This document shows positions 1,879 through 24,856 of a stretch of 48,588 bases of DNA, piece by piece. A program made the translations under genes and the position numbers. The notes under the pieces are model-generated. The model was not told where the DNA came from, made no database searches, and saw nothing but the letters and a program-made list of their open reading frames with translations. Source of the stretch: an uncultured archaeon (GTDB lineage Archaea; Asgardarchaeota; Thorarchaeia; Thorarchaeales; Thorarchaeaceae); contig CAZSWP010000031.1 in the NCBI GenBank assembly GCA_964610875.1, positions 1 to 48,588 on the forward strand, given 5' to 3'. The stretch's first letter is position 1. Each line of letters begins with the position of its first letter.

Positions 1879-1971
1879 GTTCGTACCGTATTGTTAAATA
1901 CCACAATGCATTCTTTTCGAGGTAAGCTAAGATGGGACTGCAATCACAAATAGAATGAGAAGGAGGTACAC

Positions 1972-3615
1972 ATCATCTACGCAGTAGAACTCGAGAATAT
2001 CTCCAAGACATTTCCTGGAGGCGTTGAAGCAAACAAAGACATCACGCTTCGAATAAAGGAAGGTGAAGTACATGGTCTTCTTGGAGAAAATGGAGCCGGT
2101 AAGAGTACGATTATGAACATCCTTTATGGATTGCTTTCTAAGGATAGTGGGACAATTAAAATTAGAGGAGATGAGGTGAATCTTCGTTCTCCGCAGGATG
2201 CGATTGCTCGAAGTATTGGCATGGTGCATCAACACTTCAAATTGATTCCACCTCTAACGGTTACTGAAAATATAATTCTTGGACTTGAACCGATAAGAAT
2301 GGGTGCTGATGCAAAATTAGAAGTTGATGAAATCGATGATGTTTCAATTCTTGGAAGGTTAAAGCATGTAGTATCCTCTATTCTTGGAGCATTTAGACAA
2401 CTGATGCCTACTGATATTCATGGCGCTGCTAAACGAATCAAACAGATTGCTGAAGAGAATGGGTTGAATATTGACCCTTATGCAAAAATTGAGGAAATCT
2501 CAGTAGGTTTACAGCAGCGTGTTGAAATCATTAAAACCCTCTATAGAGCGGCCGAGATTCTTATTCTAGATGAACCTACTTCAGTCTTGACTCCTCAGGA
2601 AGTAGATGAACTATTCGTCACCTTAGATAAGTTCAGAGAAGCGGGACGTACAATCATCCTCATCACACACAAACTTCGTGAAACCATGGCACTCTGTGAT
2701 AGAATAAGTGTACTGAGAGATGGAGAACTGGTAGGTACAGTAAACAAATCTGATACATCAGCTCAAGAACTTGCAGAGATGATGGTGGGACGTCCTGTTG
2801 TCTTCACCACGAAAAAGGAACCATCAATACCTGGTGAGGTCATCCTTGATGTCAAGAATCTACAAGTAGAAGATAATCGTGATCTCTTAAAGGTTAAAGG
2901 TATTGATTTGCAGGTACGAGCTGGAGAGATTCTTGGTATTGCCGGTGTTGAAGGAAACGGTCAAACAGAGTTAGTTGAAGCTCTAGCTGGCCTCAGAAAG
3001 CCAAAGACTGGAAAAATCATTGTGGATGGCCATGATATAACTGGTAAGAGTGCTAGAGAAGTAAGAGCTGCAGGTGTTAGTCATATTCCTGAAGATCGAC
3101 ATGCCAGAGGTTTAATTCTTGGGTTTACAGTTAAAGAAAATCTTACTTTAGGCAGACATCACATTGAACCCTTTGCTACAGGTCCTGTCCATTCATTTTT
3201 GAATTTTGATACGATGAAGAAGCACTCTGACAAGTTGGTTGATGAATACTCAATCAAAGTTTCAGACATTGATAGTGCAGCAAGCACACTCTCAGGAGGA
3301 AATCAGCAAAAAGTGATTGTAGCTCGAGAGCTTGCGACATCACCAAAGTTAATTCTAGCAGCTCAACCAACAAGAGGTCTAGACGTGGGAGCCACGGAAT
3401 ACATTCATCGAGTTCTGATTAATATGCGTGATGAAAATGTTGCCGTATTGCTTATTTCAGCTGAATTAGATGAAATACGTAATCTTTCCGATCGTATTTC
3501 TGTTATTTATGATGGTAGGATTGTGGCTACTAAGGATCCGGAACAAACAAACAATCAAGAACTGGGATTACTGATGGCTGGACACGAAGACGAAACAATA
3601 GAGGAGGTAGTGTAA
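1972..3615 (+). CDS. Nucleoside/sugar ABC transporter ATP-binding protein (two ABC domains, NupA/YufO-like)
   Basis: The frame extends upstream of the track's ATG (2113) through AVELENISKTFPGGVEANKDITLRIKEGEVHGLLGENGAGKST (Walker A). Also ILDEPT, LSGGNQQK and PTRGLDVGA. The start is probably ATC at 1972 or 1975 after AGGAGGT; in-frame TAG at 1951. Confidence 0.92.
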   Translation: MIYAVELENISKTFPGGVEANKDITLRIKEGEVHGLLGENGAGKSTIMNILYGLLSKDSGTIKIRGDEVNLRSPQDAIARSIGMVHQHFKLIPPLTVTENIILGLEPIRMGADAKLEVDEIDDVSILGRLKHVVSSILGAFRQLMPTDIHGAAKRIKQIAEENGLNIDPYAKIEEISVGLQQRVEIIKTLYRAAEILILDEPTSVLTPQEVDELFVTLDKFREAGRTIILITHKLRETMALCDRISVLRDGELVGTVNKSDTSAQELAEMMVGRPVVFTTKKEPSIPGEVILDVKNLQVEDNRDLLKVKGIDLQVRAGEILGIAGVEGNGQTELVEALAGLRKPKTGKIIVDGHDITGKSAREVRAAGVSHIPEDRHARGLILGFTVKENLTLGRHHIEPFATGPVHSFLNFDTMKKHSDKLVDEYSIKVSDIDSAASTLSGGNQQKVIVARELATSPKLILAAQPTRGLDVGATEYIHRVLINMRDENVAVLLISAELDEIRNLSDRISVIYDGRIVATKDPEQTNNQELGLLMAGHEDETIEEVV

Positions 3616-3616
3616 T

Positions 3617-23344: not shown

Positions 23345-24132
23345 GCTTTGACCCAGAGTTCCAAGAATTTTCGACGTTCTTCTTCAAATTTACTAGGATC
23401 CGAACACATCATAAGAAAGCGCTCATCATAACCTGTTTGTTTAAGGGGTGTGAATATCTCTTGAAAGTCAATACTACCTTCACCGATAGGAAGATGTTCA
23501 TCATATTTTCTGGCGAGTTCACGGGTTTCTTCAACTGAAATACCCCTCTTCTCACGAATCTTGAGTACTTCATCAACCATCTCGTGTCCATTGTTATCAT
23601 GTACATTAACCATTTTGATGTGGTTTATGAAGGAGTCAATATGACTTAATGATCGGTTTCGTTTGGCCATTATTTGTCCATGACCAATATCTAACACAAT
23701 TGCTATTTCAGGATGAGAATCACAGAGTAGTTGGAGCTCAGTATAATAGAGTCCGAGAGTTTCTACTGCTACTTGCATGCCAGATTCTCTTGCCGCATCA
23801 CAAAGTATTGGTACCTGTCCAAGAAACAAATCAATCTCTTCATCAGAATAAAAGAGAGTTGACAATGTGGTATGAATTGATACCAGCTCCGCATCAACTA
23901 CTCTCCCCAAGTCGATGTAAGGTACTATTTCCTTCGGAAGGTCCATAGGACGCCAATCAGGGTTGCTAGGAAGATGCAGTGTACAGCCAATTCCTGCATC
24001 AGAAAGGAATTTCTTTGTTTCACCGAAGTTTATGCTATGGTCAAAATCAAGACGTAGGTCTACAAAATCCGGTTTCATTGCAATAGCATGTTTCAGCTGT
24101 TCGTTGTTTCTAGCAAATGTTCCTATCCGCAT
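23341..24132 (-). CDS. Sugar phosphate isomerase/epimerase (AP endonuclease 2-type TIM barrel)
   Basis: TLHLP, VAVET, VLDIGHG, HDNNG and DEHLPIGEGSIDF motifs. Confidence 0.82.
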   Translation of the reverse strand: MRIGTFARNNEQLKHAIAMKPDFVDLRLDFDHSINFGETKKFLSDAGIGCTLHLPSNPDWRPMDLPKEIVPYIDLGRVVDAELVSIHTTLSTLFYSDEEIDLFLGQVPILCDAARESGMQVAVETLGLYYTELQLLCDSHPEIAIVLDIGHGQIMAKRNRSLSHIDSFINHIKMVNVHDNNGHEMVDEVLKIREKRGISVEETRELARKYDEHLPIGEGSIDFQEIFTPLKQTGYDERFLMMCSDPSKFEEERRKFLELWVKA

Positions 24133-24298
24133 TGCAAATCCCTACCATTCTAACAATCAAGTAACTTTTGTGGGTTTTGGTAATCATATCATATTCGAGA
24201 TTTTTCATATCTTTTTATTCATATCCCAAGCTTCGATAGTTTTATCAGATACAGACGTTAGTCTGTTTCCAATAACCTTTACCAGGAGTGTCTTTGAA

Positions 24299-24856
24299 CT
24301 GCCCGACGCCGTCGCTTATCTCTTCAAAATTGTCTTTCTAGGGGAAGGTGGAGTGGGGAAAACCTCTTTGGTTGGCCGCTTCGTCTATGATAGTTTTGAG
24401 GGAGATTATTTAGCAACTATTGGTGCTGCTATGCACACGAAACCTGTCAAGGTTGATGAAACCTTGGTAAAATTAGTTATATGGGACATCGCCGGGCAGG
24501 ATGACTTTGCACAATTACGAAAGGCTTACTATCAGAACGCTTCAGCTGCATTTTTTGTCTTTGATACGACACGACCTGAAACGATTGCCAGAATTGATGA
24601 ATGGATAGATGCACTCTTCTCAACAACAGGTGAGATTCCCCTAGTCATCTTAGAGAACAAGGTTGACTTGGATAGTAACATGGATCAAAAAGAAGTCGAC
24701 AAAGTAGTGAAAAAGTATGGATTTGAATATCTAAAGACAAGTGCTAAAGAAGACAAGAATGTTGAAGAAGCATTTACAAAGATCACTCGAGAAATCCTAA
24801 GACGTGCACGTGCAAAGAAAAGGAAAGCAAGTAAAGTACCAAAATCCACCGGATGA
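24299..24856 (+). CDS. Rab/Ras-like small GTPase with polybasic C-terminal tail
   Basis: FKIVFLGEGGVGKTS (G1), YLATIG (G2), IWDIAGQ (G3), ENKVD (G4), TSAK (G5). Start inferred at CTG 24299 after AGGAGTG. Confidence 0.92.
   Translation: MPDAVAYLFKIVFLGEGGVGKTSLVGRFVYDSFEGDYLATIGAAMHTKPVKVDETLVKLVIWDIAGQDDFAQLRKAYYQNASAAFFVFDTTRPETIARIDEWIDALFSTTGEIPLVILENKVDLDSNMDQKEVDKVVKKYGFEYLKTSAKEDKNVEEAFTKITREILRRARAKKRKASKVPKSTG

Follow-up and report, generated by a model that had tools for sequence, protein, structure and literature searches.

Shine-Dalgarno-placed near-cognate start codons, probably gene-specific attenuators of translation, in a Thorarchaeota genome

The window analyzed here is an entire contig of 48,588 nt (G000:C31) from a Thorarchaeota metagenome-assembled genome (MAG) of 3.75 Mb in 124 contigs (GC 0.41, completeness 95%, contamination 5.8%). 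Four of its genes, specifying an ABC transporter ATPase, the large subunit of a lipoate-protein ligase (LplA), a small membrane protein and a Ras/Rab-like small GTPase, carry at their conserved N-termini a near-cognate codon, that is, one base off AUG, in place of a canonical start (ATG, GTG or TTG). In each case the codon lies behind a Shine-Dalgarno (SD) site. A sequence-only reading of this DNA had proposed such starts at ATC 1972/1975, ATT 16126, ATC/ATA 8286/8289 and CTG 24299, and all four sites were found as described when the coordinates were read directly from the sequence. G000 denotes the genome of the window, other G numbers denote related genomes, and L numbers denote genomes in a one-per-species scan for the GTPase; ATH stands for ATT, ATC or ATA. 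Orthologous loci were taken from up to 30 related genomes per gene, and the DNA around the N-terminal alignment boundary was inspected.

Start sites of the four genes

The SD geometry of this organism was established from the 1791 open reading frames (ORFs) of G000 in which ATG is the first canonical codon. The end of GGAGG lies 7–10 nt before the start, and the spacing from GGTGA to the start peaks at 6 nt. Since their spacing fits this optimum, ATC 1975, ATT 16126, ATA 8289 and CTG 24299 are favoured as the start codons of the four genes; the four codons show a register spacing of 8–9. The sites do not have the appearance of leaderless starts, as a conserved SD is present 6–10 nt upstream at every one of them. 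The reading frames of all four genes are intact and retain 60–80% identity among relatives.

The ABC transporter ATPase (1975–3615, plus strand), which possesses two nucleotide-binding domains, was delimited through stops, domains and orthologues. Its SD, AAGGAGGT (1960–1967, plus strand), contains a GGAGG ending at 1966, 8 nt before ATC 1975; the alternative start at ATC 1972 would have a spacing of 5. Upstream the frame is closed by an in-frame TAG (1951–1953), after which no ATG, GTG or TTG occurs until ATG 2113. The latter is residue 54 of the stop-to-stop frame, in which the Pfam ABC_tran match begins at residue 28 and the Walker A motif (GENGAGKST) occupies residues 44–52. In the orthologues the codon just before a conserved Y-A-V-E-L is ATC (four cases), ATT (three), ATG (two) or GTG (one), and AAGGAGG is kept 7–8 nt ahead of it. 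In G013 the ATC follows immediately on an in-frame TGA; in G007 and G029 the stretch between this codon and the upstream stop is free of canonical codons. The public gene call, identified by exact look-up, begins at ATG 2113 and specifies a 500-aa protein without Walker A. The gene is part of an ABC operon that opens with a Bmp/PnrA-type substrate-binding protein (744–1826, plus strand; Pfam PF02608) possessing a canonical ATG; two BPD_transp_2 permease genes (3617–6088, plus strand; PF02653) follow the ATPase.

LplA (16126–16893, plus strand), placed by the same three kinds of evidence, starts at ATT 16126, 1 nt past the TAA (16122–16124) of the radical-SAM gene directly upstream (15147–16124, plus strand; PF04055). 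The SD-like GGTGA (16115–16119, plus strand) lies within the 3' end of that gene, and the 6 nt which separate it from the ATT correspond to the spacing optimum. Its last three bases, TGA 16117–16119, form the in-frame stop of the lplA frame, and no canonical codon is found between this stop and ATG 16177. Pfam LplA-B_cat begins four residues upstream of ATG 16177; the NCBIfam match and the orthologue alignments also begin upstream. Two genomes of another genus show the same arrangement, as GGTGA-6 nt-ATT (G016) and GGTGG-6 nt-ATC (G001), and in about 15 other relatives an ATG or GTG lies no more than a few codons from the ATT site. The public call, which begins at ATG 16177 (238 aa), is missing the N-terminal strand. 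Downstream lies a lipoate-protein ligase small subunit with an LplB-type C-terminal domain and a canonical ATG (16900–17178, plus strand; PF10437). The resulting three-gene cluster (15147–17178, plus strand) of radical-SAM protein, LplA large subunit and LplB-type small subunit resembles the split lipoate ligase and radical-SAM lipoate assembly route described in an excerpt of PMC10332631. A paralogue of lplA outside the window (G000:C2, about 127,650–127,700, plus strand) has a canonical ATG and reads MREKWRLLDLG, after which a one-base indel, an assembly error or else a recent frameshift, takes it out of frame with the conserved sequence that follows in G001.

The small membrane protein (8289–8855, plus strand) was delimited through its orthologues, with which it shares an FGSKYFGW motif; no Pfam family was matched. 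Its SD is again AAGGAGGT (8274–8281, plus strand), the GGAGG(T) of which is kept in 18 orthologues. The spacing is 8 to ATA 8289 and 5 to ATC 8286, with four bases between the SD and ATC 8286, and either codon may serve as the start. Among the orthologues, at least 12 genomes show ATT, ATC or ATA about 8 nt after GGAGG(T) and one shows ACG; the others have ATG or TTG there. As canonical alternatives G000 offers TTG 8205 on the upstream side and, further down, ATG 8388. The extension that begins at TTG 8205 is not conserved, and in-frame stops occur a few codons upstream of the start in G006, G004, G005 and G012. The public call uses TTG 8205 (216 aa), which represents a false extension of 28 residues. 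As the sequence-only reading had anticipated in warning of mis-annotation, three of the four proteins thus have a wrong N-terminus in the public calls. Directly downstream of, and overlapping, the membrane-protein gene is a gene for a 584-aa protein (8783–10537, plus strand) with a weak Pfam TRAP_beta match over residues 422–518 (E 1.4e-5, 25.0 bits against a cut-off of 22.4). TRAP_beta is the translocon-associated protein beta of eukaryotes, and the match may possibly represent a eukaryote-signature domain.

The Ras/Rab-like small GTPase (24299–24856, plus strand), recognized through Pfam and orthologues, has the SD AGGAGTG (24284–24290, plus strand) 8 nt before CTG 24299. The Pfam Ras domain begins 9 codons past the CTG, and the P-loop precedes the next canonical codon. 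Two canonical codons lie upstream in frame: TTG 23963, which falls inside the divergent gene (23341–24132, minus strand), and the intergenic GTG 24170. The sequence-only reading was right about the CTG and about the location of the TTG; it had overlooked the GTG, which is not conserved in relatives.

Scanning one genome per species yielded 40 orthologues of the GTPase, mostly from MAGs labelled Thorarchaeota or Promethearchaeota. The aligned codon is CTG in 33, TTG in four, GTG in one and CTT in one; the alignment of L212 was shifted by one codon, and its inclusion gives CTG in 34/40. ATG was never found at this position among the 40 species. In most of them (T/C)GGAG(A/C/T)G is kept 8 nt before the start, 17 of the CTG orthologues have no in-frame canonical codon between the upstream stop and the CTG, and the next canonical codon is usually at or past the P-loop. 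The codon appears to be a start and not an internal Leu, because it varies only as NTG although CTG is the rarest Leu codon of G000 (11% of Leu codons); an internal Leu would show CTT, CTC, CTA or TTA. The single CTT belongs to L217 (CP070658.1, the Thorarchaeota 'bin8' chromosome, 601–978), where the match ends at residue 126, and this orthologue is possibly a copy in decay. A second Ras/Rab-like GTPase paralogue with a canonical ATG (24879–25406, plus strand) lies directly downstream of the CTG-started gene, and this tandem pair is kept in nearly all relatives searched.

Frequency in the window and in the genome

The window has four near-cognate starts among approximately 47 conserved ORFs (about 9%); comparison with nine syntenic contigs added none to them. 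A fifth candidate, ORF 7110–7757 (minus strand), was rejected: it starts at the canonical ATG 7700 behind TGGAGGAG, and the similarity ahead of this ATG stems from the end of the gene next to it. For another ORF of the window (32047–33282, plus strand), whose first canonical codon is codon 43, the alignment to a longer G001 homologue begins only at residue 204 of the latter; this ORF may be a copy that has lost its N-terminus or been rearranged.

For the genome as a whole a strict single-genome test was employed. It considered SD-anchored in-frame codons that precede the first canonical start by 8 coding codons or more and have no canonical codon in frame upstream of them. In the 3429 ORFs of G000, 24 of the 122 sites of this class were ATH or CTG, where codon usage predicts 10.9 (p 2e-4). 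The same pipeline applied to 1.2 Mb of E. coli K-12 gave 6 of 73 against 8.3 expected (p 0.85), that is, no excess. Chunks of other Asgard genomes gave 9/32 (3.2 expected) in G020, 4/11 in G008, 2/4 in G001 and 1/15 in G003. This filtered test with its E. coli control replaced a first tally of SD motifs in pre-start regions, which was confounded by the codons lying between the SD and the canonical start. The strict class misses cases such as the GTPase and the membrane protein, in which a canonical codon happens to lie upstream, as well as genes with weaker SDs.

Among the chunks tested the largest SD-anchored ATH excess occurs in the first 400 kb of G020:C1, a single contig of 1.418 Mb from another family of the same phylum. 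This genome also contains an ACG-ATG aligned pair. The habit of near-cognate starts may extend across Asgard classes.

The stop-to-stop ORFs of G000 were also compared with four other genomes, three from the same family and one from a distant Asgard archaeon, represented by 400-kb chunks. We regarded as high-confidence those cases in which an SD 5-mer lies at a spacing of 7–10 before ATT or CTG, and in which the exactly aligned codon of a relative is ATG, TTG or an identical near-cognate. By this definition 5–6 near-cognate starts were recovered among the 670 G000 genes with a family orthologue. The codon pairs observed in alignments with relatives were ATT-ATG, CTG-ATG, CTG-TTG, CTG-CTG and ATT-ATT. 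The relatives contain 1–3 cases of this type per 260–290 genes. One extra ATC-ATG pair in G000 lacks an SD. In the aligned-codon matrix two of four CTG hits had an in-frame ATG, GTG or TTG a few codons upstream and were left uncounted.

In five more G000 genes the first canonical codon comes only after the beginning of a Pfam domain. These specify an ABC ATPase outside the window (CTG; first canonical codon at residue 83), an ArsR regulator (CTG; residue 60), a TPR protein (CTG), an NTP-transferase (ATC) and a GT2 glycosyltransferase (CTG). A screen for alignments extending at least 10 residues upstream of the first canonical codon flagged 27 of the 670 genes. Many were artefacts (the frameshifted lplA paralogue, N-interrupted ORFs, truncated fragments, conserved SD regions, ends of neighbouring genes, and a known in-frame TGA in a giant surface gene), and the figure was not used as a rate.

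Taken together, near-cognate starts would be present in an estimated 1–2% of G000 genes, or about 30–70. This estimate is set above the strict count because the strict class misses window-type cases and weaker SDs. The suggestion that four in about 45 genes is far more than expected is borne out insofar as the excess is real, yet it does not describe the genome: the window rate is a local high, well above the genome-wide estimate.

Proposed attenuation and the alternatives

We propose that the four genes are translated from SD-placed near-cognate starts which are Thorarchaeota-wide and gene-specific, and which most likely serve attenuation; we would assign this joint reading a probability of roughly 80%. 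Initiator Met-tRNA (Met-tRNAi) reads near-cognate codons despite one mismatched base; Met is then still the first residue, and initiation is far weaker than at AUG. Here, an SD duplex ending 7–10 nt upstream would set AUC, AUU, AUA or CUG in the ribosomal P site, where Met-tRNAi would pair with two of the three codon bases, and Met would presumably be the first residue. By analogy with known weak starts, the combination of a strong SD and a weak codon would reduce efficiency and act as a set-point attenuation of translation for proteins that are required at low or stoichiometric levels. In the case of lplA, termination-reinitiation coupling may help, the ATT being 1 nt past the upstream TAA. 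Because the same AUH or CUG position is kept across many genera and only occasionally changed to AUG, GUG or UUG, the near-cognate codons read as gene-specific, selected weak starts and not as general sloppiness. The question whether orthologues carry ATG at these positions has a divided answer: some relatives do have ATG, GTG or TTG, and many others have near-cognates.

Several points weigh against this proposal. Initiation at the four sites rests on comparison of sequences, and the organism is an uncultured MAG. In-frame canonical codons do exist upstream in G000 (GTG 24170, TTG 23963 and TTG 8205) and are excluded only comparatively, while ATC 1972 and 1975, like ATC 8286 and ATA 8289, are indistinguishable. 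The anti-SD and the decoding tRNA are assumed, the 16S rRNA 3' end and the initiator tRNA being absent from the G000 assembly. The genome-wide figure of 1–2% is rough, and the strict excess amounts to only about 13 sites. Finally, the attenuation role is drawn by analogy with bacteria and not from an archaeal ribosome with aIF1 and aIF2.

The sequence-only reading had favoured a different cause, namely a lineage-wide relaxation of start fidelity through an altered aIF1, aIF2 or ribosome, with the odd starts as tolerated drift. One might have expected this from the rate in G000, which exceeds that of the E. coli control, from the similar excess in G020 and G008, from the variety of codons used (ATT, ATC, ATA, CTG and ACG) and from the freedom with which near-cognates swap with ATG, GTG or TTG among genera. 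A general relaxation is difficult to reconcile, however, with an effect confined to about 1–2% of genes, and the long retention of one codon at one gene, as with the GTPase CTG in 34/40 species and never ATG, fits selection better than drift. The aIF1 of G000, the factor that was examined, is ordinary in sequence (E 6e-30 to M. jannaschii aIF1, with the zinc knuckle and ELQGDHR kept), and no factor or rRNA difference was identified; the conjecture that aIF1 is involved thus finds no support. Its gene (G000:C12) starts at GTG, directly after an in-frame TGA-TTA. Since this is not a near-cognate, no autoregulatory circuit like that of infC is indicated. We consider relaxed fidelity a doubtful explanation, and selected weak starts the better one.

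A further possibility is special decoding, in which an elongator or dedicated tRNA (placing Leu or Ile first) or a dedicated factor reads these codons, or in which recoding or frameshifting leads in from an upstream canonical ORF. Dedicated decoding of this sort has been proposed for some eukaryotic CUG starts, and Asgard archaea possess eukaryote-like initiation factors. Nothing in the data points to it directly. Neither an initiator tRNA nor 16S rRNA, including its 3' end, was found in the G000 assembly by ARAGORN, Rfam or, for the tRNA, a pattern search; ARAGORN and Rfam together recover only some 30–35 tRNAs, so that the tRNA set cannot be audited. Nor did the pattern search of G000 yield an initiator-like tRNA bearing a different anticodon. 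At none of the four sites is there a conserved canonical ORF upstream in another frame, and the short out-of-frame GTG and TTG ORFs near 24288–24296 are not conserved in relatives. Ordinary near-cognate reading by Met-tRNAi accounts for everything seen, and we regard special decoding as quite improbable. Among the tRNAs predicted outside the window is a tRNA-Sec with anticodon TCA (G000:C12, 21809–21899, minus strand), and the organism probably uses selenocysteine.

It is still harder to maintain that the canonical codons are the true starts (ATG 2113, ATG 16177, TTG 8205 and a canonical codon for the GTPase) and that the conserved upstream sequence is an untranslated leader. The public calls use such codons, and in-frame ones are present for the GTPase and the membrane protein. 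ATG 2113 and ATG 16177 cannot serve, because Walker A and the conserved first strand of LplA, respectively, would be lost. The canonical alternatives of the GTPase and the membrane protein are excluded because their upstream extensions lack conservation, in-frame stops close these extensions off in relatives, and the next downstream canonical codon of the GTPase is past the P-loop. Canonical initiation at these genes is therefore most unlikely. Least credible of all are assembly or sequencing errors masking a true ATG, or recent pseudogenes: the MAG has its measure of contamination, the unrelated lplA paralogue is frameshifted near its start and some ORFs are N-interrupted, but the same near-cognates recur at the aligned codon in numerous MAGs that were assembled independently (the codon being kept in 16–40 other genomes, in agreement with the earlier view of a lineage habit) and the frames are intact.

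The retention of the CUG of the Rab-like GTPase in 34/40 species suggests that weak starts are a selected expression setting alongside eukaryote-type initiation factors. There is also a practical consequence. Gene finders limited to ATG, GTG and TTG would truncate or mis-extend roughly 1–2% of the proteins of this lineage, and where Asgard small GTPases and eukaryote-signature proteins are expressed, crystallised or placed in phylogenies from such calls, the wrong N-termini would be carried over. The evolution of start-codon stringency becomes testable through genome comparison and reconstituted archaeal initiation complexes.

Comparison with known near-cognate starts

Reviews of archaeal translation name only AUG, GUG and UUG as starts (PMC7531240, PMC4705826), and a limited literature search found no published report of frequent AUH or CUG starts in Asgard archaea. 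Ribosome profiling of Haloferax volcanii placed about 30% of putative alternative initiation sites on near-cognates (PMC7261190). Unlike the starts described here, they were not linked to conserved starts of main ORFs, and the study discounted them as potential false positives (PMC7261190).

Archaea share, in simpler form, the Met-tRNAi/eIF2 machinery of eukaryotes. According to an excerpt of PMC11706245, CUG is the favoured non-AUG start of eukaryotes and is read by that machinery. Eukaryotic CUG initiation involves scanning, Kozak context and control by eIF1 and eIF5, whereas in the present case the codon would be selected by SD pairing at a fixed spacing. We offer, as a tentative conjecture with the odds somewhat against it, that Asgard archaea at large (Thor-, Loki- and Odin-type) occupy a regime between the bacterial and the eukaryotic, in which 1–3% of genes would have selection-fixed AUH, CUG or ACG starts. 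These would make up a layer of translational control read out by the eukaryote-like aIF1 and aIF2, and the conserved CUG of the Rab-like GTPase would then represent an early form of eukaryote-style near-cognate control in the lineage from which eukaryotes arose.

The closest parallels are bacterial. In E. coli the only two confirmed non-canonical starts are the AUU codons of infC, which specifies IF3, and pcnB, and near-cognate output is about 1–2% of that of AUG (bioRxiv 10.1101/063800). As in the four genes of the window, these starts lie behind an SD and are conserved across species; in infC and pcnB the start limits a protein that is low in amount or regulated. They differ in being bacterial, with IF3 as the discriminating factor and with autoregulation of infC, while the starts considered here would be handled by archaeal aIF1, aIF1A and aIF2 and, by our estimate, concern dozens of genes. 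In Staphylococcus aureus cvfC1 (AUU), ccpN, citZ and infC (AUA) have extended SD motifs and yield about 10–30% of the output of AUG (PMC13009471). These are likewise conserved non-canonical starts with a strong, well-spaced SD, and they act as translational attenuators (PMC13009471). The S. aureus set comprises four sites established by Ribo-Ret and reporters; that of the Thorarchaeota genome comprises some 30–70 sites predicted from sequence, with CUG prominent among them.

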